Source: Chlamydiota bacterium (GTDB lineage: Bacteria; Auribacterota; JACPWU01). Taken from it: a stretch of DNA of 32,000 bases. The stretch spans positions 30,001 to 62,000 of the forward strand of contig JACPWU010000002.1 of the NCBI GenBank assembly GCA_016196885.1. Direction: 5' to 3'. Every line of letters starts with the position of its first letter. Positions within the stretch are counted from its first letter, which is position 1. A program made the position numbers and the translations under genes. The notes below the pieces were generated by a model, which worked only from the letters and a program-made list of their open reading frames with translations, was not told where the DNA came from and ran no database searches. This document shows positions 1,190 through 25,986 of the stretch, piece after piece.

Positions 1190-1196
1190 AAGATGG

Positions 1197-1261: not shown

Positions 1262-1433
1262 TCTTTTCAACTTTTTCTCAAGAAAAACGCACAGTTTTGT
1301 ACGAAATTTGCATGAGAACCCTTCAAGCAAAATAAATTGTATTAAATTCAAAAATATTTTTTTACCTCTTCTATCTCAATCGTGTCTATCTCAATGGGTA
1401 GATGGTGTAACGAGCAAGCCTCAGGAGGCAGTG

Positions 1434-1640: not shown

Positions 1641-1681
1641 TTAAAATTTGCCGGGGCGCGTTTTTTAGAAGGGGGCGAGAC

Positions 1682-3377: not shown

Positions 3378-3462
3378 TCTTTTTTTTCTTCCTTTTTTAT
3401 TTCATCTTTCCCCTTAAATCAGTTAGAATGCCCCCTTTAGTTCAAAAGGGAAAGGGGTTAGA

Positions 3463-5673: not shown

Positions 5674-5778
5674 CTCATTCTTGTAAAGGAAGTTATAAAT
5701 TTTTAACTTTTTTTTAACCCTTTTTGGCCTTTGAGGTGTCTCTTATATTAGGGGGGGACCTTTGGAAGGAGGTTCTGA

Positions 5779-11580: not shown

Positions 11581-11657
11581 GGGGGTGTAGCTCAACCGGC
11601 TAGAGCGCTGCCCTGTCACGGCAGAGGTTGCGGGTTCGAGCCCCGTCACTCCCGCCA
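11581..11657 (+). tRNA. tRNA-Asp (anticodon GTC), CCA encoded
   Basis: Manual cloverleaf: acceptor GGGGGTG/CACTCCC, D stem GCTC/GAGC, anticodon stem CTGCC/GGCAG with loop CTGTCAC, T arm GCGGG-TTCGAGC-CCCGT, discriminator G, CCA. Confidence 0.9.
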
Positions 11658-13018: not shown

Positions 13019-13027
13019 ATTTTTAAT

Positions 13028-13100
<73 letters not shown>

Positions 13101-13110
13101 TTTTTAAAAG

Positions 13111-13156: not shown

Positions 13157-14374
13157 TCATTTCTTTAATTGCATAAGTTCAATTCTTTCCCGAATATGCT
13201 CCTCAAAAGTTAAAGCCTGCATTTGCCCCAGGGGACGTAGAAAGACGGCCCCTGTTTTTCGAGCCATGTCTTGGAAGCGCTTTTTGTTTTTTGGATGAAT
13301 CGAATAGCCAATCGCTTGAAGCGCATTTTCCCATCCTTTAAGAACAGAAACAAGACTTCCTAAACCTCCAAGGGGTTTTACGAAAATGGTGCGATTCAGA
13401 CAAGAGGGATGAAAAGCAGAATCATTTTCGTAGAGGACTGTCCAGCTTGTATTCGGATGACTGGAGAGAGAAAAAGCTTTTTTCTTAAATTGATAGCGGC
13501 CTCGTATTTGATGAATCTGAGAGGCTTCTCCCGCAGAGATTTTGCCTGGGGGAAAAAGATGAGAAATTTCTTTCATGGCTTCAGCCAGTATTTTGGCCCA
13601 TTCGCGAGCCGAAATTTTTGATTCTTTCTCAACATAAATGGCATGGGGTGATACGCAACCTTGTTGATCATAGAGGCAAATGTCATAAGCCGCGCGTCTA
13701 GCTAATTTCTTTGCGTTTTGAGAGCGGAGACTTTCTTTATCAATGACCGCGATACTGACTTTGTGTCCAAAGGGTAAGAATTTCTTTCTGGAAGGAAGCC
13801 GTTTTTGAATTTCTAAAAGGGTCTCATCGTTTCCATAAACATGGATAAGATCAGATGCTTTAAAAATGGTTTTCTCAAAATTAAATTCTCCGCCTTTCCA
13901 CCCACAACAAGAAATGCAGTTGCCTAGTTTAGGATCTACTTGACGAATAGATTCAGCCAAGAGCATGGGAAAGAAAGGTGCGCGGGAAGAACATTTCACG
14001 AAAACAGATGATTTGAGAAGAAGCGCCCAAAAAATATCAAACAACATGGGGGTGGGAATAATGCCTGCGAAAATAAAACTGGAGAGTTTGGGATTTGAAA
14101 AGACGTGTTTTTTCTGAAGGGCCGTCTTTAAATGATGAGATTGAACTTCCCTAAAGGCGATATTGAGGCCTTCAGAAATAACTTTCCTTGAGCATCCTGT
14201 GCTTTCAGAGAGGATGGTTTCTGCCTCCCGACGGGTGGGACTTTTCGTATCTAGCCAGAGAAGGGTGACTTGATGGAGTTTTTGAATGAGGGCTTCGTTG
14301 GGGAGAGGACTTAAGTAGGATGCTTGTTTTTCTTTAAGTCTTTTTAAGATTTTTTTTAAGTTGTTTTGATTCAT
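13157..14374 (-). CDS. LuxC-family acyl-CoA/acyl-protein reductase (aldehyde-forming)
   Basis: 405 aa. LuxC-like layout with the active-site Cys context YDQQGCVSPHAIYVE. Lies downstream of LuxE-like and aminotransferase genes on the same strand. Confidence 0.7.
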   Translation of the reverse strand: MNQNNLKKILKRLKEKQASYLSPLPNEALIQKLHQVTLLWLDTKSPTRREAETILSESTGCSRKVISEGLNIAFREVQSHHLKTALQKKHVFSNPKLSSFIFAGIIPTPMLFDIFWALLLKSSVFVKCSSRAPFFPMLLAESIRQVDPKLGNCISCCGWKGGEFNFEKTIFKASDLIHVYGNDETLLEIQKRLPSRKKFLPFGHKVSIAVIDKESLRSQNAKKLARRAAYDICLYDQQGCVSPHAIYVEKESKISAREWAKILAEAMKEISHLFPPGKISAGEASQIHQIRGRYQFKKKAFSLSSHPNTSWTVLYENDSAFHPSCLNRTIFVKPLGGLGSLVSVLKGWENALQAIGYSIHPKNKKRFQDMARKTGAVFLRPLGQMQALTFEEHIRERIELMQLKK

Positions 14375-14380
14375 AAGACC

Positions 14381-14413
14381 TTGACAAAAGAAAACTAGTT
14401 TATTAAACTAGTT
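14381..14413 (+). promoter_or_regulatory. Promoter plus palindromic operator of the phd/vapC operon
   Basis: TTGACA (14381-14386), 17-nt spacer, TAAACT (14404-14409). Perfect 10+1+10 palindrome aactagttta-t-taaactagtt (14393-14413) overlaps the spacer and -10. Confidence 0.5.
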
Positions 14414-14439
14414 GTGTTGGAAAACTGCAAGGACTTTTT

Positions 14440-14712
14440 ATGATGGAAGAGTATGGATATGGACAAGATGTAAGTGCCTTTGAGGCCAAAACCCATCTTT
14501 CGGAGCTTTTAAGGGAGACGGAGCAAGGAAGGTCTTTTGTGATTCGTCGCAGGGGGAAAATGGTTGCAAGGTTGGTTCCCCCTCTACGAGAAAATAAACA
14601 TGCCGAGATGGATAAAATTCTGGCGTCGTTTCGAGAAATTCGTCGGCATGTTGCAGGTCGTGGGAAGCCCATCAAGATTAAGAATCTTATTGAAGAAGGA
14701 AGAAGGTTTTGA
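14440..14712 (+). CDS. Type II antitoxin, Phd/YefM family
   Basis: 90 aa. Contains VSAFEAKTHLSELLRETEQGRSFVIRRRGKMVARLVP, typical of prevent-host-death antitoxins. Its stop overlaps the toxin start (TGATG). Confidence 0.75.
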   Translation: MMEEYGYGQDVSAFEAKTHLSELLRETEQGRSFVIRRRGKMVARLVPPLRENKHAEMDKILASFREIRRHVAGRGKPIKIKNLIEEGRRF

Positions 14713-15137
14713 TGGATTGGGTTCTGGACTGTTCTTTTGCGCTCTCCTGGACTTTCCCTGATGAGCGTTCAGAGTCGTCAGAGCGGCTCCTTAAAAATCT
14801 ATCACAAGAATCTTTACTTTGGGTCCCTTCCTTGTGGTGGGTGGAGCTATCCAATGCAATGAGGGTGGGTTTAAAGAAGAAGAGGTTGTCAGAAGCTGAT
14901 TTGACACTGGCGATGGATCATTATGGGTCACTTCGGATTCAAACGGATTTTGCGGGTCAATCTGACTATGTGTGGCGTCTTCTGAGTTTGACCAGAGAAT
15001 ATGATTTGTCTGCCTATGATGCTTCTTATCTCGAGTTATCTCAGAGAAAGGGTTTGGGTCTTGCTACTCTGGATCGTGCCTTAGCTTCTGCTGCTCAAAA
15101 AGCAGGTGTTAAATTGGCTCTTCGTCACTTAAGTTAA
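14712..15137 (+). CDS. vapC: Type II toxin, VapC (PIN-domain ribonuclease)
   Basis: About 141 aa. PIN acidic residues in the expected contexts (VLDCSF, WWVELSNA, SAYDASYLELS, LATLDRAL). The track start at 14709 is TTG, and ATG at 14712 is more likely. Confidence 0.75.
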   Translation: MDWVLDCSFALSWTFPDERSESSERLLKNLSQESLLWVPSLWWVELSNAMRVGLKKKRLSEADLTLAMDHYGSLRIQTDFAGQSDYVWRLLSLTREYDLSAYDASYLELSQRKGLGLATLDRALASAAQKAGVKLALRHLS

Positions 15138-16220
15138 ATAATTCTGCATAACTAGAGAGCAACCTCTGGGTTCTGCGCGAGGAGCCCTTCCCAGAATTTC
15201 GAATCCATCTCCCATTTTCACACCCATGTCTTCCGTCAAAAGCCCCATGACACTGGAGCGATTGGCCAAATCATAATGTTGAAGAAGACCTATTTTACCT
15301 TTGGGTTGTTCCTCCAGTGTAGAGGGATTGAGCACACGTGTTCTTACCCAAGGAGGAATGTTTTTGTAAATTTTTCTTTTTCGTTTCTGAATAAAATTTT
15401 GAAGGGTGTTGTCATAAAATTGGGAACCCATTTCGGTCATGCCGTATTCGTTTACAATATGGGTGAGAGGAATATCCAATATTTGATGAATCATTTCATA
15501 AAGTTCTTTTTTCGCAAGCTCCCGGGATTTCCCTTTGGTGCCCCCTGTTTCCATCACACGTGAACCTGAAGGGAGTTTAAATTTCCACTTTTTCTCGACA
15601 CAATGATCTAGAAAATGGACGAATGAGAAGGCTGTTCCTAAGATAATGACGGGTTGATCGGACGAAGAAAATGATTCCAGTTTTTTCTGAAGGAATTCTG
15701 AAAGGAGTTTCCCTTTTTTTAAGAAATAATAGGTTTTACCTTTGATGCCTATTTCTTTTTCGAGAACACCCATCATGTGACACAGAGATGAATGGGGCAT
15801 TTCTTGAGGAGTGGGCGTTAGGATGAGCAAGGGCCATCGCTTTTCATGGATGCAAAAGCTATTTTTAAAATGGATGAGAAGCGATTTTTCGTAGAACCTT
15901 AAATTTTCAAGATAGTGGCGACCCTTCTTTTGAAGGGTTGTTCCACTGGTGTGAAAGACTTTTTGTGCCTTTCGAAATGGGAAACAGCATAGGATTTCTT
16001 CTTTGAAAACAGTTGTGGGTACAAAGGGGATCTCTTTCCAATGGGAAATTTTGCAAGGGATTCGGCCTAATTGAAGGCAGTATTTTTGAAAAGGGCGATT
16101 GTGAAGATATTGATATTTAAAAAGTTCAAGGGCGAGGGAATTAAATTTTTTTTCATTTGCTTGTGCCTCTTCCATAAAATCCAAAATAAGACAGTCTAAT
16201 TTTTTTGTGCTGAGAGACAT
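15129..16220 (-). CDS. LuxE-family acyl-protein synthetase / acyl-adenylate-forming enzyme
   Basis: 363 aa. The N-terminal FNSLALELFKYQYLHNRPFQKYCLQLG...WKEIPFVPTTVFKEE matches the LuxE family pattern. The 3' end overlaps vapC convergently by 9 nt. Confidence 0.7.
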   Translation of the reverse strand: MSLSTKKLDCLILDFMEEAQANEKKFNSLALELFKYQYLHNRPFQKYCLQLGRIPCKISHWKEIPFVPTTVFKEEILCCFPFRKAQKVFHTSGTTLQKKGRHYLENLRFYEKSLLIHFKNSFCIHEKRWPLLILTPTPQEMPHSSLCHMMGVLEKEIGIKGKTYYFLKKGKLLSEFLQKKLESFSSSDQPVIILGTAFSFVHFLDHCVEKKWKFKLPSGSRVMETGGTKGKSRELAKKELYEMIHQILDIPLTHIVNEYGMTEMGSQFYDNTLQNFIQKRKRKIYKNIPPWVRTRVLNPSTLEEQPKGKIGLLQHYDLANRSSVMGLLTEDMGVKMGDGFEILGRAPRAEPRGCSLVMQNYLT

Positions 16221-17533
16221 TTTTCAATCACTTTGTAAGCGTGTCCAAGTTGTTTTTCGGAAATGCTCAAGGGAGGTGTAAAGATGAGCACGTTGCCATC
16301 CATCCCATCTGAAAGGAAGATAACTCCTTCTCTCAAAGCTTGCGTAACCAAATCTCTTGCCCTGCGGGGATCCGCTCTTCTAGAATTTTTCTGAACAATT
16401 TCGACTCCGATCATGAGTCCTCTTCCTCGAATTTCGCCGATACAAGGATAGGTCCTTTGAAGCTTCCGGAGTTGTAAAATCCATTTTTCTCCCAAGATTC
16501 GTGCCCTTTCTATCAATTTAAGCTTTTGAATTTCTTGAAGATTCCTAAGGGCCATGGCACATCCCAAGGGACTTGCCATGAAAGTGCTGGTGTGAAGTGC
16601 CTCGTCGTGGTAGCGAGGCCAATGGGACATGACTTTGCGAGTACCGATGCAGGCGGAAATAGGAAAACCTCCAGAAAGGCCTTTACCAATGGTCATAATA
16701 TCAGGAACAATGTCACTCGCTTGGAAGGCAAACCAAAATCCAGTTCTCCCCATCCCTGAATAAATTTCGTCAGCAATCAATAAAACATGATATTGATTGC
16801 ACAGATGCCGCAGCCCTTTTATGAAGAGGGGAGGGGCCATTCGAATGCCGCCTCTTCCCTGAATGGGTTCAATCAGCACAGCGCCTATTTTATTTTTTTT
16901 GAAAAGCGTTCCCATTTTTTTGAACAAGTGATGGATTTGTTCGGAGGTGAAATTGTGAGGATAAGAAACTGAAATGCTTCGAAGGCCCAGTTGATTTTTA
17001 AAAGGTTGATGTAGATTAAGAAAATTTGTGGCTTTCAAGGCTCCGTAACTCATGCCGTGATAGCTGCCTTCGAAAGTGATAAGGCCTGATTTTCCCGTGG
17101 CCAAAAACGCTGTCTTAATAGCGATTTCAACTGCCTCTGCCCCTGACGATCCAAAAATTATTTTTTCAAGAGGGGAGGGAAAAATTTTACTTAAGCGTTC
17201 AAGCAATTGGATTTTGGATTTGTCAGGATAGACATCACTCAAGGAATGAAGAAGTTTTTGGGCCTGTTTCATTAGGGCTTTCACGACGCTAGAATTTGTG
17301 TGGCCCGTTTGTGCTACACCAAATCCAGCTGTGAGATCAAGGTAGCGATTCCCATCCACATCCCAGACGTTGGCTCCTTGGGCTTTTTCCCAAACAATGG
17401 GGGTGTTCTTATTGATAAGGGTGATGTTGGGGCATTCATGACGCAAAAGTTTTTTTGCCAGGGCCCTAGATTTTGGGCCTGGAATTGCGGTGCTTCTGAT
17501 TTCAGGAAGAAATGTCCTAGAGGTATTTTTCAT
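16196..17533 (-). CDS. Class-III (omega-type) PLP aminotransferase
   Basis: About 445 aa. Contains GSYHGMSYGAL, LIADEIYSGMGRTG and PDIMTIGKGLSGGFP (PLP lysine). Overlaps the LuxE-like gene by 25 nt. The track start at 17536 is TTG, with ATG at 17533. Confidence 0.8.
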   Translation of the reverse strand: MKNTSRTFLPEIRSTAIPGPKSRALAKKLLRHECPNITLINKNTPIVWEKAQGANVWDVDGNRYLDLTAGFGVAQTGHTNSSVVKALMKQAQKLLHSLSDVYPDKSKIQLLERLSKIFPSPLEKIIFGSSGAEAVEIAIKTAFLATGKSGLITFEGSYHGMSYGALKATNFLNLHQPFKNQLGLRSISVSYPHNFTSEQIHHLFKKMGTLFKKNKIGAVLIEPIQGRGGIRMAPPLFIKGLRHLCNQYHVLLIADEIYSGMGRTGFWFAFQASDIVPDIMTIGKGLSGGFPISACIGTRKVMSHWPRYHDEALHTSTFMASPLGCAMALRNLQEIQKLKLIERARILGEKWILQLRKLQRTYPCIGEIRGRGLMIGVEIVQKNSRRADPRRARDLVTQALREGVIFLSDGMDGNVLIFTPPLSISEKQLGHAYKVIEKCLSAQKN

Positions 17534-17638
17534 CAAGACGAATTTACCGTGTCTGTTAGAGGAAGATCAAGAAAATCCGAAAAGTATTTAATCCCTTTCA
17601 GATATCTTTAGAAACCTCTGGACAAATACACTTTTTTG

Positions 17639-17705: not shown

Positions 17706-18989
17706 ATGGACTCTAAAATTCCGAAATATCAGAATCCTTGGTGGGAAAACCCACAGGCCATGCTTGATGACCAGCATCTTCTTGCCATTCGAGGGAAACC
17801 CTACGAATATACCCCATCGCTGGTTTGTGAGACGCCATTTGCTCCAGGGGACATTTTTGTCTTGAGAGGTCCTAGACAGGTTGGGAAGACAACAACCCTT
17901 AAAATGTTTATTCACCGTTTGCTCCAAAAAGAATGTGTCGACCCACACTCTGTTTTTTACTTGAGTTGTGAGGCGATCATTGATTTTAGAGAGTTGATAG
18001 AAGTTCTTTCAGAATATTTTGCGGACCGGAAAGGAAAAAGAACTTACCTCTTCCTGGATGAAATTTCTTTTGTTTCAAAGTGGCAAAGGGCGATTCTTGC
18101 AATTGCAAATCAAGGCTTGATAAATTCTTCAACCCTTGTGTTGACAGGATCCAATGCAAGAGATTTGAGAGAGAGCAGTGAGCGTCTTCCCGGAAGAAGA
18201 GGGAAGGGAAAAGATCTGGAACTTTTTCCGCTGTCTATTCCACAATTGAAAACATTACCCTGTTTTCAAGAGTGTTCGTTCAAGAGGCTTTTAGAGATTT
18301 ATATGCTTGTGGGAGGGTTTCCCAGGGCAATTGCAGACTTTGTCACGCTGGGGGCTGTTACTGACAATACTTATGATATCTATCGTAATTGGATTGTGGG
18401 GGATGCCAGTCGCTATGATTTAAGACAGGAGACATTAAAGCAGATTCTCTTTCGGATTGCCCAAACCATGGGAAGTCGTATCACCTGGCCTAAACTGATT
18501 GAGAATAGCCCTGTCAAAAGCCATGAAACAGCGCTTGAATATGTTGAACATTTGAAAGATGCTTTTCTCTGTCATGTCCATTACTGTTATGACCCCGATC
18601 TAAACGGCCCCTCTTTTCATAAGGCGAGAAAAATCTATTTTATGGATCCTCTTCTTTATGGGGTTGCTGTATGTTGGCGTGAGGGCAGGGTCAATATAGC
18701 CCAGTGGATGAAAGAAACGCTTCAGGATGATTCAGAATACGGCCACATGTTTGAGTCTACTGTGATCAATCACGCGGCAAGAATTTATCCTGAAATTTTC
18801 TTTTGGTACTCTGCCAAAGAGCAAAAAGAGATTGACCTCGTTCTCAAATATTCAGGTGAAACAAGCCTTTATGAAGTCAAGCGATCAGAAGATTCAACGG
18901 TGCTTCGCGCCTTGGGTAGAAACGTCTCTATTCTTCATCCGCAATCGTTCGAGAAATTTCTAACAAATTGTTCAGTGCCTCGTTCTTGA
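17706..18989 (+). CDS. AAA-family ATPase (AAA_14 N-domain plus DUF4143-like C-domain)
   Basis: 427 aa. Walker A LRGPRQVGKTTT, Walker B YLFLDEISF and LVLTGSNARDL. The architecture is typical of DUF4143 ATPases. Confidence 0.7.
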   Translation: MDSKIPKYQNPWWENPQAMLDDQHLLAIRGKPYEYTPSLVCETPFAPGDIFVLRGPRQVGKTTTLKMFIHRLLQKECVDPHSVFYLSCEAIIDFRELIEVLSEYFADRKGKRTYLFLDEISFVSKWQRAILAIANQGLINSSTLVLTGSNARDLRESSERLPGRRGKGKDLELFPLSIPQLKTLPCFQECSFKRLLEIYMLVGGFPRAIADFVTLGAVTDNTYDIYRNWIVGDASRYDLRQETLKQILFRIAQTMGSRITWPKLIENSPVKSHETALEYVEHLKDAFLCHVHYCYDPDLNGPSFHKARKIYFMDPLLYGVAVCWREGRVNIAQWMKETLQDDSEYGHMFESTVINHAARIYPEIFFWYSAKEQKEIDLVLKYSGETSLYEVKRSEDSTVLRALGRNVSILHPQSFEKFLTNCSVPRS

Positions 18990-20435
18990 AGAAAGTTTTT
19001 TAGTTTGCTTAATATCGAACTCATTTTCCGAAATCAAAATGGCGGTCATCCCTCCTTGCTGGGCGACGTTGACGATTTCTCTCTGGGAGGCTCGGCCTAA
19101 AATGCCCAATCCATAAGGAGAATAAATGAAGCCGCAGACGACATTCAAGTTTTTCTCAGTGACTCTTCCTTTTTCATCTAGGATGGGAAATTTTTTCTTT
19201 CTTGTCGCGCATCGTTTTTGAAGAACATAAGAACCTGGATCTCGAATGGCCTTCTCGAGGGCCTTCTCCCAAGTTATTTTTGGAGTCTCGTCCCCCATCA
19301 AAATGCCCATGCCTCCGTAACCGCGATTGGGTTTGAGAACCCATTCATTTCGATGGTGAATCGCATGGGAGATCAGGTCAACCCTTTTTCCATCGGGGTC
19401 TGTCGTTTTTGTCTCTCGCACGAGCCGTGTCCACAAAACATGTTTCTTGAAAATTTTCCTTTCCTCTAAATTGAAGTGGTGTTCAAACTCTGGGTTGCTG
19501 AAAATTTCAAAGGCGCTTTTATGATCGAGTTCTCCGGAGAGTCCTGAAACCACGACATTTTCTTGAAAGGCTTTTCGAATGGCTTTAAGAGGCTTTCCCT
19601 CTTCTTTTTCCATTTCGATGAATTCTTCGAGGGTGCTGTCACGGTAAAGAATGTCTAGGGGCAAATCCTTATACACGATTTCTCCCTTTTTGATTTTGAG
19701 GTCTCGTGGATCTGCAACCACGGCTTCGATTCCTTGGGATTGAAAAAGTTGGGCGAGGTAAAAAAAATCGAGAGGTCCGCCTTTGGTTCGGTCATCTAGG
19801 ATGAGTCCGATGTTACATCGACGCTTGCCCAACATTTTTAAATGGGCTTGAAGTTCCCATAGAAGAATGGAGCGAATGTCATCATTGGGCCGGACTTGAA
19901 GGTTTGGGGCGAGGGGACGTAAGGAGTGGATCACCGTTTCTAAAATAATTCTTTCAGCCGTCGGCGTGTAATGAAGGCCGCCCACCCCTACGCCATTAAC
20001 CTCCAGAAAATGAAAGGCCGCCCGCCAATCTTGTCCACTGAAGTTGGCATTTGCGTCCCAGCGGGTGATGGCGGTACGGGGAGCCTCTCGATTTTGGGGG
20101 AAGTATTGGAGGAACCATTCCTCTTCTTTTTTCTGAAAGGGGAAGAGTTTTTTCACTTTAGGATTTTTGAGATAAAGCCATGACAATTTTTGATAGGCCT
20201 GGTTCATGTGGTAGCATGTCTTTAGAAAAAAGGTGCGTTGGAGAGGTGTGATCAAGCGAGGCCTCATCAGAAGTGGGATCAGGCGGGTAGAGCCGTTTTC
20301 CTCTTCGTACACCATGCCTTTTTTGCGGCTTTCTTTTTGAATTTCTCGAAAAAGTTTTTGAATCTCGTGTTTGTCCAACTTCATGAAGAGCTGATGAATG
20401 GAGTTAGAGAGGGAATAATCGGGCCAAGGACTCAT
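18972..20435 (-). CDS. Circularly permuted ATP-grasp (type-2-like) amidoligase
   Basis: Blocks resemble the CP_ATPgrasp_2 family: STRLIPLLMRPRLITP, RWDANANF...FHFLEVNGVGVGGLHY, EWVLKPNRGYGGMGILMGDE, GILGRASQREIVNVAQQGGMTAILI. I prefer the ATG at 20435 (AAAGGTG RBS). The TTG-extended track start at 20477 runs into a heptamer repeat. Confidence 0.6.
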   Translation of the reverse strand: MSPWPDYSLSNSIHQLFMKLDKHEIQKLFREIQKESRKKGMVYEEENGSTRLIPLLMRPRLITPLQRTFFLKTCYHMNQAYQKLSWLYLKNPKVKKLFPFQKKEEEWFLQYFPQNREAPRTAITRWDANANFSGQDWRAAFHFLEVNGVGVGGLHYTPTAERIILETVIHSLRPLAPNLQVRPNDDIRSILLWELQAHLKMLGKRRCNIGLILDDRTKGGPLDFFYLAQLFQSQGIEAVVADPRDLKIKKGEIVYKDLPLDILYRDSTLEEFIEMEKEEGKPLKAIRKAFQENVVVSGLSGELDHKSAFEIFSNPEFEHHFNLEERKIFKKHVLWTRLVRETKTTDPDGKRVDLISHAIHHRNEWVLKPNRGYGGMGILMGDETPKITWEKALEKAIRDPGSYVLQKRCATRKKKFPILDEKGRVTEKNLNVVCGFIYSPYGLGILGRASQREIVNVAQQGGMTAILISENEFDIKQTKKLSSRTRH

Positions 20436-20452
20436 GAAGCACCTTTTATGAC

Positions 20453-20524
20453 CAGCGGTCAGCGTACAGTTTTGCAAGGAATTGATTTTTTTTCCTGACT
20501 GCTAAACGCTGACCGCTGACCGCT
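20453..20524. repeat. Heptamer-repeat inverted array, AGCGNNC / CTNNACG family
   Basis: cagcggtcagcgt (20453-20465) pairs with acgctgaccgctg (20506-20518). The right arm ctgactg ctaaacg ctgaccg ctgaccg ct has a 7-nt period. Lies in the divergent spacer of the ATP-grasp locus. Confidence 0.7.
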
Positions 20525-20602
20525 TCTTTATTTATGATATTAAAATAAGTCATCAGTTGCTATGATTAAAGGGGAGTCCTTGGGTTAAAGAAAGGAGAAA
20601 TC

Positions 20603-20836
20603 ATGGTTGATACAGATTTGAAAGATGTGAAGGAGATCGTTTCTACTGTGAAAGAGTTGCAGGGAAATATTAAGGATTTAGTGGAGATTTTTTCAAAATT
20701 GCCTTCGGGGAAGCACCGCGGTGTTTCTGGAGATTTAGAATTGACCACGAAAGAAAAAGAAGTCTTGAAATTAATTCAGCGGGAACAAGAGAGGGCAGAT
20801 CAGGTCGTCAATGCCTTGACGCAGGCGATTCGTTAG
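20603..20836 (+). CDS. Hypothetical small charged/coiled-coil protein (77 aa)
   Basis: Strong AAAGGAG RBS 5-6 nt upstream of the ATG, and its own hairpin plus T-run downstream. No recognisable domain. Confidence 0.6.
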   Translation: MVDTDLKDVKEIVSTVKELQGNIKDLVEIFSKLPSGKHRGVSGDLELTTKEKEVLKLIQREQERADQVVNALTQAIR

Positions 20837-20837
20837 A

Positions 20838-20952
20838 CAATGGCCTATTCCCAATGACAAATGACAAATCAATATCCAATGCCCAATGACCTATGGGACA
20901 TTCGTTGTGGGTCATTCATTTGGCATTGGGGATTGGAAATTTGCCATTTTTT
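20838..20952 (+). terminator. Heptamer-repeat inverted array (CCAATGA family) with trailing T-run
   Basis: Left arm acaaatg acaaatc aatatcc aatgccc aatgacc. Right arm gggtcattcatttggcattggggattggaaatttgccatt. aatgacc/ggtcatt and atccaatgcc/ggcattgggGat pair. T6 at 20947-20952. Starts 2 nt after the stop of the 77-aa ORF. Confidence 0.6.
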
Positions 20953-21057
20953 AATTACAAATGAGAAAGGGTCTGATATTCTTAGTTTGAGTGGGCGTTA
21001 AATGATGAGTTTAATGAAGGCCATTTAAAGGAGAGGAAGGATCGTACTTACACGATC

Positions 21058-22083
21058 ATGCGAGTCGGGCTGACATACAATCTCAAAGAAAATGCCAGTC
21101 TAGCAGATGAACATTCTGCAGAATGGGACTTACCTGAAACCATTGACGCCATCGCGAATGCTCTTTCCCGCGAGCATGAGGTCATTTGGGTTTTGGCGGA
21201 TGCCGATGCCTATGAGAAGTTGAGACATTCTCGGGCAGACATCGTGTTCAATGTTGCGGAAGGAAAAGACGGCCCCAATCGAGAAGCACATTTACCTGCC
21301 ATTTTAGAATTCTTGAGAATTCCATACACAGGTTCTGACTCTTTGACTTTGAGTCTTTGTCTCAACAAGGCTCGGACCAAGGAAATTCTTTTCTATCACG
21401 GGATTCCCACACCTGATTTCCAAGTTTTTCACGCCTCCAATGAACCTCTCGTCTTGACCGATTATCCAATGCTGGTGAAGCCGTTATGGGAAGGTTCGAG
21501 CATTGGAATTCATGACAATGTCTGGGTTGAAAATGAGAAGGAACTTCGTTCAAAAATGAAGGGGATCATTGTTCAACATCATCAACCTGCGATTGTTGAA
21601 GAAGCCTTGACGGGAAGAGAGTTCACCGTGGCTCTTTTGGGAAATGGAACTCAGTTGAAGGTGTTGCCTTTGGTTGAAGTGATGTTGGATGCATTGCCCC
21701 ATGAGGCCCATCCGCTTTATTCTTATGAGGCGAAATGGATTTGGGACACCCCTGAAAAGCCTTTGGATATTTTTCATTGTCCGGCCCAGGTGGAGGATGT
21801 TTTAAAGGGAAAAATAGAAGGAATTGCCAAGGCCGCTTTTAGAGCCTTGGGGTGCCGTGATTGGTGCCGGATCGATGTTCGGTTGGACCGAGAGGGAAAT
21901 CCCTCCATCCTAGAGGTGAACCCGCTCCCGGGCATTTTACCCAATCCTCGTCAAAATTCTTGTTTTCCAAAAGCGGCTCGGGCGGCTGGGATGGATTATC
22001 CCGAAATGGTTCTTTCCATTTTGGGGGCGGCGCTGGAGCGCTGTGGAATGTTAGAATCTGTGGGGAGTTCGAAAAGGCGTTAG
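21058..22083 (+). CDS. D-Ala-D-Ala-ligase-like ATP-grasp amidoligase, paralog 1
   Basis: 341 aa. Ddl-family blocks: LNKARTKEILFYHGIPTP, PMLVKPLWEGSSIGI, AIVEEALTGREFTVALLG, YSYEAKW, RIDVRLDREGNPSILEVNPLPG. The substrate cannot be inferred. Confidence 0.75.
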   Translation: MRVGLTYNLKENASLADEHSAEWDLPETIDAIANALSREHEVIWVLADADAYEKLRHSRADIVFNVAEGKDGPNREAHLPAILEFLRIPYTGSDSLTLSLCLNKARTKEILFYHGIPTPDFQVFHASNEPLVLTDYPMLVKPLWEGSSIGIHDNVWVENEKELRSKMKGIIVQHHQPAIVEEALTGREFTVALLGNGTQLKVLPLVEVMLDALPHEAHPLYSYEAKWIWDTPEKPLDIFHCPAQVEDVLKGKIEGIAKAAFRALGCRDWCRIDVRLDREGNPSILEVNPLPGILPNPRQNSCFPKAARAAGMDYPEMVLSILGAALERCGMLESVGSSKRR

Positions 22084-22263
22084 CCCGCATTTCTCATCAG
22101 ATTTCGTCGCGAGAGCGTCGAGTCTGCCTTGGATGCGAGGAAGACGCTCCGTGCCATGCGAGGCATACTTTACAGTATGTTGAGCGTGGCCGACCGAGTC
22201 TGCACGGAGAGACGAGGCGGAATCGGAGAAGAGCAGCAGAAATGTGATGAGAAATGTGGGCTA
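22081..22263. repeat. GC-rich 183-nt structured insert bounded by 19-nt inverted repeats (element A)
   Basis: tagcccgcatttctcatca (22081-22099) against tgatgagaaatgtgggcta (22245-22263), complementary except for one G-T. Internal helices gagcgtc/gacgctc and catact/agtatg. The left repeat starts on the TAG stop of paralog 1. Confidence 0.75.
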
Positions 22264-22265
22264 GC

Positions 22266-23309
22266 ATGAAAAAAATTATCATTCTTTATGATGCCACTCC
22301 AGGCTTCCAGCTAGATCCGGAGGCAAAAAAGGCCTTGGATGTTTTTAGGGATGTTGAAAAAATAGGATGTATTTTGAAAAAACAGGGCTTTCAAATTCAA
22401 ACCTTGGGGTTGGACTTTCCGATCATTCGTAAGATTCAAGAATTGGTAAACACCGATGTGGATTTGGTTTTTAACCTTTGTGAGGGATTGGGGGATGAGA
22501 GTGCCTATGAAATTCATGTGGCCTCTTTGTTAGAATTGATGAAAGTTCCCTTTACAGGATCGGGTTCTCTCAGCCTCGCCTTCTGTCACAACAAGGCGAT
22601 TGCGAAGGCCCTCTTGAATATGCATGGCATGCCGACGCCGAATTATATTTTAGTTGAAGCAGGGGATCCCATCTCTAAACAAGGATTGGAATATCCTTTG
22701 ATTGTGAAGCCAGTACATGAGGACGGGAGTTTTGGAATTGATGAAGATTCAGTGGTGCACCATGATGGGCCCCTGAAGAAAAAGGTTTCTTTTATTCATG
22801 AATTTTTTCGGCAGCCCGCTATTGTGGAAGAATTCATTGATGGCCGAGAGTTTAACGTTTCGATTTTGGGAAATGATCCTTTGGAAATGGTGAAGGTTCG
22901 TGAAATTTGTTTTTCCTCAAGGTACGAGCCTCGCATTGTGAGTTTTGATGCAAAGTGGAAAAAATCAAGCCGTGCCTTTCGCGCCACGAGGCCTTGTCGG
23001 GTGGAGGATCTTCCACAAGGGGTTAAGGAAAAGATGATACAGGTTGCGATTCGATGCCACGAGATTTTTAAAATGAAGGATTATGGACGAATTGATTTTC
23101 GATTGGGGAAAAGCGAGATTCCTTATGTCATTGATTTAAATCCCAATCCCTGTATTTCAGCTGATTCGGGAATGGCCTTGGCAGCCGTTGAGGATGGGAT
23201 TTTATATGAAGAACTTATCGGAAAAATCGCAAGCCTTGCCTTGTCTCGAGAAAATGGGAAAGGTCTTCAGGGTTCGGGAAGCAACTCCATCGGATCGAGA
23301 GAGGATTGA
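22266..23309 (+). CDS. D-Ala-D-Ala-ligase-like ATP-grasp amidoligase, paralog 2
   Basis: About 347 aa. Blocks HNKAIAKALLNMHGMPTP, PLIVKPVHEDGSFGI, AIVEEFIDGREFNVSILG, RIDFRLGKSEIPYVIDLNPNP. Roughly 30% identical to paralog 1 by eye. The alternative ATG at 22254 lies inside the right inverted repeat of element A. Confidence 0.75.
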   Translation: MKKIIILYDATPGFQLDPEAKKALDVFRDVEKIGCILKKQGFQIQTLGLDFPIIRKIQELVNTDVDLVFNLCEGLGDESAYEIHVASLLELMKVPFTGSGSLSLAFCHNKAIAKALLNMHGMPTPNYILVEAGDPISKQGLEYPLIVKPVHEDGSFGIDEDSVVHHDGPLKKKVSFIHEFFRQPAIVEEFIDGREFNVSILGNDPLEMVKVREICFSSRYEPRIVSFDAKWKKSSRAFRATRPCRVEDLPQGVKEKMIQVAIRCHEIFKMKDYGRIDFRLGKSEIPYVIDLNPNPCISADSGMALAAVEDGILYEELIGKIASLALSRENGKGLQGSGSNSIGSRED

Positions 23310-23742
23310 GGAGATTCTCAAGGCGTCAAAAGTTTTTAGCCAAGCCGAGGTTGCTTGTGCCCTTTCTCTTTTCGAGATTTATCTGGAGAGAGGAGGAGCG
23401 GATGAGTATGTTTTTTGCTGTGCCTGCGATGAGGCAGATGTTGTTCAGGGATTGATTTGCTATGGGAAGGCTTCTCTGACGGATGCAGTTTATGATCTTT
23501 ATTGGGTGGTGACGCATCCAGTCCATCAGGGAAGAGGGATCGGGAGCTTGCTCATGGAAGAACTGGACCATCGCCTGAAAATTTTAGAGGCTAGAATGAT
23601 TTTAGCTGAGACTTCTTCGAGGGCTGATTACGAGAAGTCTCGGGCGTTCTACCGTGCCCATGGGTATGAGCTTGTTTCGACGATTCAAGATTATTATGCG
23701 TTGGGAGAAGATTTGGTTGTTTTTGGGAAAAGATATCCTTAA
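23254..23742 (+). CDS. GNAT-family N-acetyltransferase
   Basis: About 162 aa from MGKVFRVREATPSD. Acetyl-CoA motif VTHPVHQGRGIGSLLM (Q/RxxGxG/A). Overlaps paralog 2 by 56 nt. The track start at 23188 would lengthen the overlap. Confidence 0.75.
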   Translation: MGKVFRVREATPSDRERIEEILKASKVFSQAEVACALSLFEIYLERGGADEYVFCCACDEADVVQGLICYGKASLTDAVYDLYWVVTHPVHQGRGIGSLLMEELDHRLKILEARMILAETSSRADYEKSRAFYRAHGYELVSTIQDYYALGEDLVVFGKRYP

Positions 23743-23787
23743 GACTGTTATTCGTACTTCGTTTTAAAAGAAATAAAGGAGGATTTT

Positions 23788-25035
23788 TTGAACAATCGCG
23801 TTCAAGAAATTTTAAAGGCGACATCTCAAGAATGGAACGATTGGCATTGGCAGATGCGTCATCGCATCTTGAGCGTGGACGATTTAGAAAAATTGATTCA
23901 ACTATCTGAAGAAGAAGAAAAAGGAATTGAGTGGGCTTCTCATCAGAGAAGCCTCCCCTTGGCCGTCACCCCTTTTTTTGTCTCTCTGATGGATCCTGAG
24001 AACTTCGATTGCCCGGTTCGAAAACAGGTCATTTGTAGGCAAGAGGAATCCCTGGATGCCCTTTTTGACATGCAGGATCCTTGCGGGGAAGATTCTCACA
24101 GCCCTGTTCCCAATTTGGTGCATCGTTATCCAGACCGGGTGCTTCTGATTGCAACGGATCGTTGTCTTTCTTATTGCAGGTATTGTACGCGCAAGAGAAT
24201 TGTGGGAAGTGGAGAGGTGGGTCTCTCCACAGAGAAATTGGACAAGATTTGCGATTATTTGGAGTGCACACCGCAGGTGAGAGATGTTCTCATTTCAGGG
24301 GGGGATCCTTTGATTCTTTCAGATGAAAGAATTGATTATCTCTTGGGGCGTCTTCGGAAAATCAAGCACTTGGAAATTTTAAGAATTGGAACGCGAGGCC
24401 CTGTTTTTCTTCCGCAGAGGATTACTCCGGACTTGGTCTCTATCTTAAGAAAATACCATCCTTTTATGATGAGCATTCATGTGAATCATCCAAAGGAATT
24501 GGCGCCTGAGGTGTCGCGTGCCTTAGAAATGCTGGCGGATGGAGGGATTCCCTTGGGGAGCCAAACCGTTTTGCTCAAGGGCGTGAATGATGACCCAGAC
24601 GTTGTGATGAAATTGTGCCATGAACTTTTAAAGGTCAGGGTGCGGCCTTATTATCTTTACCAGTGCGATCCTGTCTTTGGGACAGAGCATTTTCGGACCT
24701 CTGTGGATGTGGGGGTGAAGATCATCGAGAAGATGAGGGGCCATACCACTGGTTATGCCGTTCCCACTTTTGTGGTGGATGCCCCCGGAGGGGGAGGGAA
24801 AATTCCTATCTCTCCCAATTATCTGGTTTCCAATGTTCGAGGGAAAACCATTTTGCGCAATTACGAGAATAAAATTTTTGAATATCATGATCCTTTGGAA
24901 ATTGGGGCTAAAAAGAGACGGTCGAGGGCGAAGACATGGACTTCTTTACAAATGACATTGCCTCTTAAAGTAGAATCTTTCACTCCTTCCGAGCCCTTTG
25001 TTCAGCCTAAAAAGGCCAAGAGCGCCATTCGTTAA
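23788..25035 (+). CDS. kamA: KamA-family radical-SAM lysine 2,3-aminomutase
   Basis: 415 aa. Contains NLVHRYPDRVLLIATDRCLSYCRYCTRKR (CxxxCxxC), VRDVLISGGDPL, GSQTVLLKGVNDD and RPYYLYQCD. TTG start with AAGGAGG RBS (23777-23783). Confidence 0.85.
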   Translation: MNNRVQEILKATSQEWNDWHWQMRHRILSVDDLEKLIQLSEEEEKGIEWASHQRSLPLAVTPFFVSLMDPENFDCPVRKQVICRQEESLDALFDMQDPCGEDSHSPVPNLVHRYPDRVLLIATDRCLSYCRYCTRKRIVGSGEVGLSTEKLDKICDYLECTPQVRDVLISGGDPLILSDERIDYLLGRLRKIKHLEILRIGTRGPVFLPQRITPDLVSILRKYHPFMMSIHVNHPKELAPEVSRALEMLADGGIPLGSQTVLLKGVNDDPDVVMKLCHELLKVRVRPYYLYQCDPVFGTEHFRTSVDVGVKIIEKMRGHTTGYAVPTFVVDAPGGGGKIPISPNYLVSNVRGKTILRNYENKIFEYHDPLEIGAKKRRSRAKTWTSLQMTLPLKVESFTPSEPFVQPKKAKSAIR

Positions 25036-25086
25036 ACATTTTCTTCTCGACCTTACCTTCGGATCATCTTGAAAGGGGGGTTTTCT

Positions 25087-25986
25087 GTGCAAAAAATAGA
25101 CTTTGGTATTGCCTGGGAGTGGGAATACGATGGAGATTTTATTCGGCTTTTAGAGGCCGAGTGTGAAAGGCAAGGTTTGAGTGTTTGGGTCGTCCATCCC
25201 AAGAATTTTGATGCGGTTCATGAAAAGATAGAGAGAAAAGAAATTTCTTTGAGTGCCTATTTGGATCGCGCGGGCGATGTCTTGGAGCGCTTTGCCCGAT
25301 TTGCGGAAGGCCTCAGGGCTCAAGGCGCCTGGGTTCTCAATCCATTCTCGCATGTTGAAAGGTCGAGAGACAAGGCCACGATGCATTTAGAATTTCTCAC
25401 CAAGGGTCTTCAAGTTCCTTTTACAGTGATTCTTTCCCCTTATGACAAAGACCCCGAACTGAGGTTCAGCGAACTTGAGAAATTGGGCCGTCCTTTTATC
25501 ATCAAACCTGCTTGTGGGGGAGGAGGCTTGGGCGTGGTGATGGGTGCTGAAAATTTGTTGGATGTAATTGAGGCCCGGAAGGAATACCGCGCCGATAAAT
25601 ATTTGCTTCAGAAGAAGATTATTCCAAAGTGTTTTGGGCTCCGGCGAGCTTGGTTTCGCTCCTTTTATGTGTGTGGGAAGGTCATTTCCTGCTGGTGGAA
25701 TGATGAGACGCATCTCTACGACGTTTTGACGGATGAAGAAAAAGAACTTTATCACTTGGTAAAATTAAAAAATGTGACCCGCTCTATTGCAGAGGTATGC
25801 GAGTTAAATTTTTTTTCAACCGAGATCGCTATTGACGAGGAGGAAAAATTCGTGGTGGTGGATTATGTGAATGAGCCTTGTGACATGAGAATGAAGTCTG
25901 TTCATCGGGATGGTGTTCCAGATGAAGTGGTTCAAGAGATTGTGCAAGCCTTGGTAGAAGGGGTCAAAAAGACAGTTATAAGTTGA
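25087..25986 (+). CDS. ATP-grasp-fold ligase (RimK/GshB-like superfamily, subfamily unclear)
   Basis: About 299 aa. Contains RDKATMHLEFLTKGLQVP, GRPFIIKPACGGGGLGVV, YLLQKKI and VVVDYVNEPCDM. I prefer GTG at 25087, 6-7 nt after AAAGGGGGG. The track start is TTG at 25069. Confidence 0.6.
   Translation: MQKIDFGIAWEWEYDGDFIRLLEAECERQGLSVWVVHPKNFDAVHEKIERKEISLSAYLDRAGDVLERFARFAEGLRAQGAWVLNPFSHVERSRDKATMHLEFLTKGLQVPFTVILSPYDKDPELRFSELEKLGRPFIIKPACGGGGLGVVMGAENLLDVIEARKEYRADKYLLQKKIIPKCFGLRRAWFRSFYVCGKVISCWWNDETHLYDVLTDEEKELYHLVKLKNVTRSIAEVCELNFFSTEIAIDEEEKFVVVDYVNEPCDMRMKSVHRDGVPDEVVQEIVQALVEGVKKTVIS

Follow-up and report, generated by a model that had tools for sequence, protein, structure and literature searches.

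The window, a 32,000-nucleotide stretch of DNA from a Chlamydiota bacterium, carries five adjacent genes (21058-25986) for two Ddl-like ligases, a GNAT acetyltransferase, a lysine 2,3-aminomutase (KamA), and a third ATP-grasp ligase, which with a probability of roughly 55% constitute an NRPS-independent route to a small cytoplasmic N-acetylated peptide or amide containing beta-lysine. The ligase/GNAT/KamA module is uncharacterized and present in hundreds of bacterial species from many phyla. A first-pass annotation of this DNA did not recognize the gene combination as a characterized pathway, and the literature we searched likewise yielded no characterized counterpart. That annotation had grouped seven adjacent ORFs (18972-25986) into a single unit with four ATP-grasp enzymes. 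All seven were recovered at their coordinates and strands (Table 1), and the families proposed for them agree with profile searches for the ligases, the GNAT, and KamA and with AlphaFold models for the two other ATP-grasp proteins. The seven-gene grouping itself, however, does not hold: only five of the seven genes form the conserved unit, as the circularly permuted (CP) ATP-grasp belongs to a separate operon and the 77-aa ORF occurs in this Chlamydiota clade alone.

Table 1. Features of the window, with position, strand, and basis of assignment
Feature	Position	Strand	Evidence
LuxC-like reductase	13157-14374	-	LuxC 2.6e-56
PIN toxin gene, interrupting the rest of the CP-ATP-grasp operon (13157..17536)	14709-15137	+	PIN 1.4e-8
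LuxE-like acyl-protein synthetase	15129-16220	-	LuxE 2.9e-26
Class-III aminotransferase	16196-17536	-	Aminotran_3 5.9e-102
CP-ATP-grasp amide ligase, glutathione-synthetase/GspS-like	18972..20477	-	Fold match
77-aa small protein	20603..20836	+	Conserved in relatives, strong RBS
Long imperfect hairpin then U-run, between 77-aa ORF and ligase 1	20837..20960	+	Inverted repeats
Ligase 1, Ddl-like ATP-grasp amide ligase	21058..22083	+	Dala_Dala_lig_C 2e-37
Ligase 2, paralogous Ddl-like ATP-grasp amide ligase	22254..23309	+	Dala_Dala_lig_C 2.2e-24
GNAT acetyltransferase	23254..23742	+	Acetyltransf_7 1.6e-11, Acetyltransf_1 9e-9
KamA/AblA-type lysine 2,3-aminomutase, radical SAM, PLP enzyme	23788..25035	+	LAM_C 3.9e-26 plus Radical_SAM
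Third ATP-grasp ligase, LysX/ArgX/RimK/Ddl-like fold	25069..25986	+	AF2 model + Foldseek

We surveyed the module with ligase 1 as the query, identifying relatives in at least 590 species genomes, and counted gene contexts in the 49 loci with full flanks around ligase 1. A second ligase is present in 45 of these loci, a GNAT in 42 (six of them without KamA), and KamA in 39, with ≈20% having no KamA nearby; the second ligase, GNAT, and KamA occur together in 36, and the canonical order in 28. This one-strand ligase1-ligase2-GNAT-KamA order is found in Acidobacteriota, Desulfuromonadales, Bacteroidota/Ignavibacteriota/Kryptoniota, Planctomycetota, Nitrospinota, Auribacterota, and Chlamydiota. The side-by-side placement of the five plus-strand enzyme genes goes far beyond chance; the same order is met again in many phyla. 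The third ATP-grasp is a recurrent accessory that adjoins the module in Chlamydiota, Auribacterota, and Deltaproteobacteria and stands alone in most metagenome loci. As had been proposed, the locus exceeds the two-gene abl pathway, with KamA and the GNAT embedded among two Ddl-like ligases that are repeatedly joined by a third ATP-grasp. The module genes abut or overlap one another, which suggests translational coupling; the reported 56-nt overlap of the GNAT with ligase 2 is borne out with the ATG at 23254 and is repeated in relatives.

In Desulfuromonadales, a GNAT-HDAC-type deacetylase fusion flanks the module, joined in D. kysingii by an ArgE/DapE deacylase, neighbors that would fit the turnover of a small N-acetylated molecule. 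Beside the module in the loci of relatives, we saw no target protein, precursor peptide, transporter, or EF-P gene that recurs. Module-bearing habitats include groundwater, soil, wastewater, and marine settings, with osmotic stress not singled out. Glycan-biosynthesis genes border the module in this Chlamydiota clade, making a cell-surface destination possible.

KamA scores 354 bits against its family model TIGR00238 (cut-off 199) and 492 bits against the AblA model TIGR03820, slightly below the cut-off of 525, and it matches the solved lysine 2,3-aminomutase 2a5h at 2.1e-139. The CLSYCRYC cluster motif noted previously is present, and D293, D330, and K337 are conserved; the lysine-binding residues of the solved structure are kept. 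The partner KamA proteins retain D293, D330, and the PLP lysine in every locus. On the basis of these residues, we predict that KamA supplies the module with beta-lysine.

Ligase 1 is the most conserved member of the module and apparently an obligatory one, with a cross-phylum identity of 50 to 65% (typically ≈55%) as compared to ≈30% to real Ddl enzymes, and it falls under all NCBIfam Ddl cut-offs (188 versus 243 bits). Its high conservation suggests a primary or physiological metabolite as the product rather than a variable antibiotic. Relative to Escherichia coli DdlB, ligase 1 retains K97, K144, E180, E187, K215, R255, D257, E270, and N272 but carries the invariant changes H63 to E, Y216 to W, and L282 to C, lacks the E15 motif, and contains two loop insertions. 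Ligase 2 (347 aa with the NCBI start) is 31% identical to ligase 1, close to the earlier estimate of about 30%, and evolves faster. Its catalytic set is intact, and it departs from ligase 1 at S150 (A/G), Y210 (V/C), G276 (D), S281 (A), and L282 (G). Both families keep every ATP, Mg, and catalytic residue, carry an invariant acidic residue in place of H63, and are without the D-Ala determinants found in true Ddl, appearing to be two distinct and active Ddl-like ligases.

The third ATP-grasp (305 aa) is weakly RimK/LysX-like by sequence (4.6e-10). Its AlphaFold model shows a complete ATP-grasp fold (pLDDT 96.7), for which Foldseek retrieves Ddl, ArgX, LysX, and RimK from the PDB (E about 1e-14, TM 0.6-0.76), with LysX, ArgX, and RimK giving the best TM-scores; K102, K146, E252, D265, and N268 are conserved. 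The GNAT is short (about 160 aa) and RimI-like, its best NCBIfam match being a weak one to rimI (34 bits), and a full-length relative in the PDB is 2r7h (1.6e-22), of unknown function. It gave no match to the AblB model TIGR03827 and is not a beta-lysine acetyltransferase of the AblB type.

In the route that we propose, KamA would convert L-lysine to beta-lysine, as its conserved active-site residues indicate, and ligases 1 and 2 would act nonredundantly, each activating a carboxylate as an acyl-phosphate to form one amide bond; these ligation steps are suggested by intact catalytic residues combined with altered acceptor pockets. The third ATP-grasp could add a further bond, and the GNAT would acetylate a free amino group. 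We predict an N-acetylated di- to tetra-amide containing beta-lysine as the product, with the number of bonds deduced only from the gene count; its most plausible role is that of a compatible solute or polyamine-like cationic metabolite. Formation of acetyl-beta-lysine as the first step is not favored, because loci lacking KamA still pair the GNAT with the ligases. For the polymer or protein tag raised in the earlier annotation, we see no positive evidence.

The KamA-less loci raise the possibility that basic amines other than beta-lysine are also used. In these loci, ligases 1 and 2 form a tight operon with genes for a deoxyhypusine synthase (DHS)-like protein, agmatinase, and the arginine decarboxylase PvlArgDC, and metagenomes repeatedly show the order PvlArgDC-third ATP-grasp-ligase1-ligase2-GNAT. 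The ligases might then acylate whichever amine the locus supplies, beta-lysine via KamA or agmatine, putrescine, or homospermidine via the polyamine genes, yielding peptidyl-polyamine-like compounds that are possibly envelope- or glycan-bound. The acidic replacement of H63 in both ligases, the glycan genes at the module border in this clade, and the precedents of E-64 and YgiC/YjfC for ligases acting on agmatine or polyamines fit such a scheme. However, the polyamine-linked loci are confined to a limited set of Deltaproteobacteria/Thermodesulfobacteriota lineages, the metagenome PvlArgDC proteins are 92 to 99% identical to the L070 query, and the polyamine genes could be mere housekeeping neighbors. 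We found no ligase-1 residue that discriminates KamA-linked from polyamine-linked loci, implying that ligase 1 may not touch beta-lysine at all, and a single ligase-2 residue tracks the switch; with so few, the enzymes may yield one and the same product in KamA-linked and polyamine-linked loci. We regard this broader amine conjugation as unlikely.

The minus-strand CP-ATP-grasp (501 aa) was correctly identified by fold, although its sequence scores 17 bits against CP_ATPgrasp_2, under the Pfam cut-off of 32; some homologs match PF14403. A model built from the 487-aa NCBI start (pLDDT 92) matches eukaryotic-type glutathione synthetase (human/plant GS), Cp1B, 3n6x, GspS, and YjfC/YgiC over the full length (TM about 0.6-0.7). 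CP ATP-grasps normally have alpha-E/transglutaminase partners; this one has none and heads its own divergent operon with a class-III (omega) aminotransferase, LuxE, and LuxC. The same operon occurs in loci L087, L089, L172, and L173, the last two inside surface-polysaccharide clusters. The CP-ATP-grasp lies beside the module in 0 of 80 genome loci, its co-occurrence being limited to two close relatives, and it is not part of the beta-lysine module. It and its partners are probably an adjacent, separate, glycan-linked system.

Membership of the 77-aa ORF in the module is uncertain. Its strong RBS was confirmed (GAAAGGAGAAATC-ATG), and it is 56 to 71% identical in four related genomes, a conservation equal to that of the enzymes, with an invariant LTTKEKEVLKLI motif and a variable C terminus; profile searches assigned it to no family. 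It adjoins the module in loci that lack the CP-ATP-grasp (L001, L003), adjoins the CP-ATP-grasp operon in a locus that lacks the module (L089), and lies between the two in the window and L087; it does not occur in any other phylum. This conserved ORF immediately upstream and the LysX/ArgX/RimK resemblance of the third ATP-grasp would suit a RimK-, LysX/LysW-, PGM1-, or graspetide-like modification system, in which the ligases join beta-lysine or amino acids onto a ribosomal peptide or a protein and the 77-aa product serves as substrate or carrier. We consider this improbable, given an ORF confined to one clade as compared to a module in at least 590 species, a C terminus that, unlike that of LysW, is not conserved, an occurrence away from the module, and ligases 1 and 2 of the Ddl-type, small-substrate class; near the module, we saw no further small ORF and no target gene that recurs, and EF-P is unlinked. 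Moreover, this ORF is separated from ligase 1 by a terminator- or attenuator-like hairpin (MFE -37.4 kcal/mol, z = -2.9), whose conservation does not extend to L003 or L001 and which has no Rfam match.

More doubtful still is an ordinary abl-type pathway producing acetyl-beta-lysine as an osmolyte. KamA beside a GNAT is the abl signature, KamA scores near the AblA equivalog model, and the genome paper of Pelobacter carbinolicus annotated the GNAT-KamA pair Pcar_1401 and Pcar_1402 in this way (PMC3543383). However, the GNAT does not match AblB, overlaps ligase 2, and remains with the ligases where KamA is missing, and a ligase-GNAT-KamA order kept in more than eight phyla does not fit chance adjacency. 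That either ligase is a housekeeping D-Ala-D-Ala ligase for peptidoglycan is scarcely credible: true Ddl enzymes are the top PDB and NCBIfam matches, and the family goes by "D-alanine--D-alanine ligase" in many database entries, but the scores below every Ddl cut-off, the altered D-Ala determinants, the ≈30% identity to real Ddl versus 55% within the family, and the constant GNAT/KamA context all argue otherwise.

Compared to known systems, the proposed beta-lysine amide module shares with AblA/AblB (KamA/YodP) a lysine 2,3-aminomutase, AblA-like and with all lysine-binding residues, adjoining a GNAT. It differs in its short, RimI-like GNAT and in two or three integral, co-oriented ATP-grasp ligases, tied to the GNAT more tightly than KamA is, so that the product is expected to carry extra amide bonds. 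Ligases 1 and 2 have the fold and ATP/Mg2+/acyl-phosphate machinery of Ddl, their best sequence and structure match, with replaced substrate-site determinants (H63E, Y216W, L282C/G, no E15 motif, loop insertions) and another genomic context. By analogy, the product logic may resemble that of the osmolyte N-acetylglutaminylglutamine amide (NAGGN), for which Ngg performs both acetylation and peptide-bond formation (Sagot et al. 2010, as summarized in PMC8070244), again combining GNAT chemistry with an ATP-dependent peptide bond to make a small N-acetylated peptide without NRPS or ribosome. Ngg is described as a single protein that carries out both reactions on glutamine, its partner AsnO being an amidotransferase of the asparagine-synthase type, whereas the module has a separate GNAT and Ddl-type ligases, no AsnO-like gene, and a radical-SAM enzyme supplying a beta-amino acid. 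E-64 may be similar, in that stand-alone ligases (Cp1B/Cp1D) build a molecule ending in the basic amine agmatine (PMC12568646). With this pathway, the L-amino-acid ligases of bacilysin, tabtoxin, dapdiamide, and rhizocticin, and MysD of mycosporine synthesis, the module shares successive amide bonds made by discrete ATP-dependent ligases, nonproteinogenic building blocks, and Ddl homologs repurposed for non-D-Ala substrates; it differs in having no warhead-forming enzyme and in a taxonomic spread unlike that of a secondary-metabolite cluster.

All seven ORFs claimed by the first-pass annotation are present in the window at the coordinates and on the strands it listed, and profile searches assign them to the proposed families, with the circularly permuted ATP-grasp (CP-ATP-grasp) and the third ATP-grasp placed mainly by fold and the 77-aa ORF left without a family. 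An alignment scan with one genome per species identified relatives of ligase 1 in at least 590 species, and we surveyed gene order in the best 80 of these loci by tblastn with the window proteins. The genes proved to be co-conserved across genomes, with the order ligase 1-second ligase-GNAT-KamA recurring in many phyla. Among the best 80 loci, these four genes lie on a single strand in Acidobacteriota, Desulfuromonadales (including the cultured Desulfuromusa kysingii DSM 7343), Bacteroidota, Ignavibacteriota, Kryptoniota, and Planctomycetota, and the same order occurs in one Chlorobiaceae MAG; in Nitrospinota and Auribacterota, the module is reduced or reordered. Reduced forms comprise ligase 1-GNAT-KamA (wastewater contigs and Auribacterota), KamA-ligase 1 (Nitrospinota), and, where KamA is missing, ligase 1-ligase 2(-GNAT).

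Ligase 1 of the window is 100% identical to a protein assigned to a Chlamydiae/Chlamydiota MAG, which agrees with the window as a whole. Full-context loci, with at least 4 kb on either side, number 49; the second ligase occurs in 45 of these, the GNAT in 42, KamA in 39, and all three in 36, of which 28 keep the exact canonical order. The module is ancient and real, and chance adjacency is ruled out. The earlier interpretation stands as to a beta-lysine/amide-ligase module but not as to seven genes with four ligases: the actual unit is five genes with a core of four, the CP-ATP-grasp lies outside it, and the 77-aa ORF is clade-restricted. In the related genome loci L001 and L003 (KamA 75% identical), the order is small ORF, ligase 1, ligase 2, GNAT, KamA, and a 300-330-aa ATP-grasp, followed by DivIC and then enolase. 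Ligases 1 and 2 are separated by 170 nt in the window (22084-22253), with nothing recognized within; they overlap in the closest relatives, L001, L003, and L087, and overlap or lie close together in most other loci. In L001 (GCA_964640155.1, the closest complete relative), a 2,104-aa Metallophos-domain protein (964-7278) splits the small ORF from ligase 1.

Features of the module and of the neighboring region in the window
Feature	Position	Strand	Assignment or remark
tRNA-Asp(GTC)	11581-11657		Upstream of the module region
tRNA-Phe(GAA)	13027-13101		Upstream of the module region
CP-ATP-grasp/aminotransferase/LuxE/LuxC operon	20477 down to 13157	minus	
PIN toxin gene	14709-15137	plus	Inside the operon, opposite strand
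AAA_14/DUF4143 ATPase gene	17706-18989	plus	Inside the operon, opposite strand; shares 18 nt with the 3' end of the CP-ATP-grasp ORF
CP-ATP-grasp	18972-20477	minus	501 aa
77-aa ORF	20603-20836	plus	MBI1884316.1; strong Shine-Dalgarno
Hairpin and U-run	20837-20960		Between the 77-aa ORF and ligase 1
Ligase 1	21058-22083	plus	Ddl C-terminal ATP-grasp domain, 2e-37
Ligase 2	22254-23309	plus	Ddl C-terminal ATP-grasp domain, 2.2e-24
GNAT	23254-23742	plus	Overlaps ligase 2 by 56 nt
KamA	23788-25035	plus	KamA-family radical-SAM aminomutase; CLSYCRYC, LAM_C domain
Third ATP-grasp	25069-25986	plus	305 aa; weakly RimK/LysX-like by sequence, 4.6e-10

The whole catalytic region of KamA aligns with the solved Clostridium subterminale enzyme 2a5h (2.1e-139), and the radical-SAM cluster motif CxxxCxxC is present as CLSYCRYC. 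The protein scores 354 bits against the KamA family model TIGR00238 (cut-off 199) and 92 bits against LAM_C (cut-off 26.7). Comparison with 2a5h (YQCD, VVDAP, and GGGGK) indicates that it retains the PLP lysine Lys337 as well as Asp293 and Asp330, the ligands of the lysine epsilon-amino group (C. subterminale numbering). The Asp pair is present both in long partner KamAs, which read "YQCD", and in shorter ones, which read "YQAD". The three signature patterns and both aspartates are found in 46 of 49 partner KamA ORFs, the exceptions being a truncated ORF (L018), an unmatched pattern (L027), and a cluster motif that reads CPIYCRYC (L058). Because the Asp293/Asp330 signatures are so widely kept, the partner KamAs are predicted to yield beta-lysine consistently.

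Ligases 1 and 2 share 31% identity. To compare individual residues, we aligned 73 ligase-1 and 67 second-ligase sequences with E. coli DdlB. All nine ATP/Mg2+/catalytic residues (K97, K144, E180, E187, K215, R255, D257, E270, and N272) are invariant in the 73 ligase-1 sequences, and eight of the nine are invariant in the second ligases, in which position 270 is Glu in 64 and Asp in three, window ligase 2 being one of the three. In both families, H63 is invariantly replaced by Glu and Y216 by Trp, and the N-terminal E15 motif is not alignable or absent. The families diverge from one another at S150, Y210, G276, S281, and L282 (L282 is Cys in ligase 1 and Gly in ligase 2, and S150 is Ala or Gly in ligase 2), and ligase 1 has two loop insertions near the acceptor site. 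Against NF002378 (cut-off 243), ligases 1 and 2 score 188 and 136 bits, respectively, and their scores against other Ddl/Van models are far below the cut-offs. Because the catalytic set is kept, the D-Ala determinants are changed, and the Ddl/Van cut-offs are missed, ligases 1 and 2 are, judging from their residues, two apparently active and non-redundant amide ligases rather than D-Ala-D-Ala ligases. Database entries often call these ligases D-Ala-D-Ala ligase, and for the ligase-1 family (≈55% identity across phyla) the name "D-alanine--D-alanine ligase" is a clear systematic misannotation.

The best NCBIfam match of the GNAT (≈160 aa) is a weak one to rimI (34-43 bits for the window protein and its D. 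kysingii orthologue), and its nearest solved relative is the uncharacterized 2r7h (1.6e-22). In six full-context loci, the GNAT stands beside the ligases where KamA is absent; it is therefore assigned to the ligase system rather than regarded as an acetyltransferase dedicated to beta-lysine.

The AlphaFold model of the 305-aa third ATP-grasp (58 homologs; pLDDT 96.7) has a three-domain ATP-grasp fold, and Foldseek matches it over its full length to Ddl, ArgX, LysX, and RimK (E ≈ 1e-14, TM 0.6-0.76). Its family is small, with 397 representative clusters at E ≤ 0.001. In Chlamydiota, the gene directly adjoins the module; it does so also in Deltaproteobacteria, where it precedes ligase 1, and in Auribacterota, where it follows KamA and apparently takes the place of ligase 2. 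In a metagenome scan run with an alignment of 10 closer sequences, it stands alone in most loci, and the neighbors of these standalone genes, read from sequence, are housekeeping only (TPR proteins, fructose-bisphosphatase, and M23 peptidase) and give no hint of function. Seven metagenome contigs show the order PvlArgDC, third ATP-grasp, ligase 1, ligase 2, GNAT.

To see what else accompanies the ligases, neighboring genes in the genome loci were grouped by clustering. In KamA-less loci of several Deltaproteobacteria/Thermodesulfobacteriota MAGs, ligases 1 and 2 form a tight operon with a deoxyhypusine-synthase-like enzyme, an agmatinase, and a pyruvoyl arginine decarboxylase upstream and a methyltransferase or GNAT downstream (polyamine-linked loci L025, L026, L032, L052, L055, L081, L093, L094, L097, L100, L111, L112, and L143). 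The three upstream genes correspond to a homospermidine-type route, and in some of these loci the methyltransferase takes the place of the GNAT. In eight Desulfuromonadales loci, including L031 (13585-15330), the module adjoins a GNAT-HDAC-type deacetylase fusion; this protein of ≈580 aa begins with a GNAT and ends with a domain of the histone-deacetylase type (acetylpolyamine amidohydrolase-like), and an NCBIfam search with it returned no match. In D. kysingii, an ArgE/DapE deacylase and a further GNAT also lie near the module. The nature of these accessory partners suggests that the chemistry involves basic amines and N-acetyl groups. The difference between KamA and polyamine contexts is tracked by no residue of ligase 1, by a single residue of ligase 2, and by two of the GNAT, too few for substrate assignment; because of the ligase counts, the idea that the ligases accept an amine that is swapped by locus is a lead rather than a result.

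The minus-strand CP-ATP-grasp scores 17.1 bits against CP_ATPgrasp_2 (PF14403; gathering score 32), a threshold that only some of its homologs reach. Its model (487 aa from the NCBI start; pLDDT 92) matches human, plant, and yeast glutathione synthetases, Cp1B, 3n6x, and GspS (Foldseek E 1e-20 to 1e-11), with glutathionylspermidine/trypanothione synthetases also among the fold matches. As the first-pass annotation had remarked, alpha-E and transglutaminase-like partners are absent, and the neighbors are instead a class-III aminotransferase, LuxE, and LuxC. Homologs at 60-70% identity are likewise the first gene of an operon with a class-III aminotransferase, a LuxE-like synthetase, and a LuxC-like reductase, which suggests carboxylate to aldehyde to amine to amide chemistry; we found no published description of this operon. 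None of the best 80 genome loci pairs the CP-ATP-grasp with the module by tblastn, the two are not near each other in L089, and their divergent abutment is confined to the window and L087/L088. The L089 copy of the operon is likewise interrupted, by equivalent AAA_14/DUF4143 genes on its own strand and by a PIN/PhdYeFM pair on the other. In the loci L172 and L173, the operon forms the distal part of a surface-polysaccharide cluster with GT4 and GT2 transferases, a Wzx-type flippase, an ABC2/Wzt exporter, and a polysaccharide deacetylase; in L173, it is flanked by a ≈2,168-aa protein similar to the Metallophos protein of L001.

What is established is that the module combines an aminomutase specific for lysine with two or three ATP-grasp ligases, whose catalytic residues are intact and whose pockets differ from those of Ddl, and with a ligase-coupled GNAT, in a deeply conserved order. 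With a probability of roughly 55%, we propose that the module makes a small N-acetylated, beta-lysine-containing peptide or amide. KamA would supply the beta-lysine, and each ligase would make a single amide bond by way of an acyl-phosphate, as ATP-grasp enzymes generally do (PMC12568646). The GNAT would place an acetyl group on a free amine, giving the small N-acetylated product.

As to the role of this product, the module borders glycan genes in this Chlamydiota clade, where the product may be destined for the cell surface. We favor a soluble, osmolyte or polyamine-like role because no target protein, precursor, transporter, or EF-P gene recurs among the neighbors of the module loci, deacetylase and deacylase genes are found there, and ligase 1 is highly conserved. 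A broader version of the soluble reading, which we advance tentatively and at somewhat less than even odds, is that ligase 1-ligase 2-GNAT(-KamA) makes an unrecognized class of N-acetylated peptides on a basic amine (beta-lysine, or agmatine or a polyamine in the variant loci), serving as a physiological solute or polyamine surrogate in hundreds of mostly uncultured species from at least ten phyla, and that at least one genome paper has mistaken its GNAT-KamA pair for ablAB. The one earlier reading that we found takes a GNAT-KamA pair of Pelobacter carbinolicus as ablB/ablA for N-epsilon-acetyl-beta-lysine, with ligases unmentioned and the neighboring genes not given (PMC3543383).

Membership of the window genes in that two-enzyme abl pathway is unlikely. 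KamA reaches 491.7 bits against the AblA equivalog TIGR03820, under the cut-off of 525.4, and an AblB-type partner is absent: the AblB model TIGR03827 matches neither the window GNAT (E ≤ 0.01) nor its D. kysingii orthologue (E ≤ 1e-5).

A peptide-like product could also be built on a carrier or precursor, for which the 77-aa ORF is the candidate. It is a real gene, with an invariant LTTKEKEVLKLI motif, 56-71% identity in relatives, and a variable C terminus, and a profile search gave no family match. It is confined to one Chlamydiota clade, where its neighbor is just the module in L001 and L003 and just the CP-ATP-grasp operon in L089, while in other cases it lies between the two; clade restriction, the variable C terminus, and occurrence away from the module exclude it as a general carrier or precursor. 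Unlike LysW-type carriers, whose C terminus is conserved, it lacks the conserved acidic C terminus and is absent outside the one clade, which does not fit a LysW/LysX amino-group carrier system. No recurrent small ORF that could be a RiPP or graspetide precursor was found among the best 80 genome loci. An analogue of EF-P beta-lysylation is discounted, with EF-P near one of 160 loci and KamA of the long LAM type, not EpmB.

The hairpin that follows the 77-aa ORF (-37.4 kcal/mol, z = -2.9) is long, imperfect, and built of CCAATGAC-like repeats. It is significant in the window only and not kept in L003 or L001, which rejects a conserved leader structure; the small ORF of L089 is followed by another structure, unlike this one and very stable (z = -5.2). 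Rfam at the gathering threshold returned two tRNAs and no riboswitch or regulatory RNA, and a permissive scan of 20400-22350 yielded nothing credible. Over the window as a whole, 30 of the 32 one-kb bins have a positive GC skew, and the remaining two are near zero. Just past a DUF2079 membrane-protein gene, a 32-nt inverted repeat (29853-29884 / 30017-30048; 91% complementary, 132-nt spacer) gives mirror-image ORFs on both strands and may represent either a large terminator or a small mobile element.

In bacteria, beta-lysine has so far been known mainly as an osmolyte in its acetylated form, as a modification of EF-P, and as a building block of antibiotics. If the proposal is true, the tie between beta-lysine synthesis and two or three dedicated amide ligases would define a new small-metabolite family, and KamA and GNAT pairs should no longer be read by default as an acetyl-beta-lysine pathway, which would affect how genomes and metagenomes are interpreted, as in studies of salinity or ammonia stress. 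The ligases would be attractive biocatalysts for beta-amino-acid amides, and the hypothesis is directly testable in D. kysingii DSM 7343.

The first-pass annotation had not recognized the gene combination as a characterized pathway, and we too found no such system in the literature searched; full-text searches gave no paper joining aminomutase, ATP-grasp ligases, and beta-lysine, and an earlier, purely computational mention is possible. Carnosine synthase is an ATP-grasp ligase that acts on a beta-amino acid, and MysD is a Ddl homologue of mycosporine synthesis; because of these precedents, substrates such as those proposed here lie within the family's range. The module would be a case of NRPS-independent, ATP-grasp small-amide biosynthesis, and its distribution is unusually broad. 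By analogy, its closest functional precedents would be E-64, in which an acid, an amino acid, and agmatine are joined by stand-alone ligases (PMC12568646), and NAGGN, for which Ngg couples N-acetylation to peptide-bond formation in the account of PMC8070244, which cites Sagot et al. 2010. An asparagine-synthase-like gene is absent from the window region and from the recurrent neighbors. Whereas NAGGN synthesis uses the bifunctional Ngg and the AsnO amidotransferase, the module encodes its GNAT and its ligases as separate genes.
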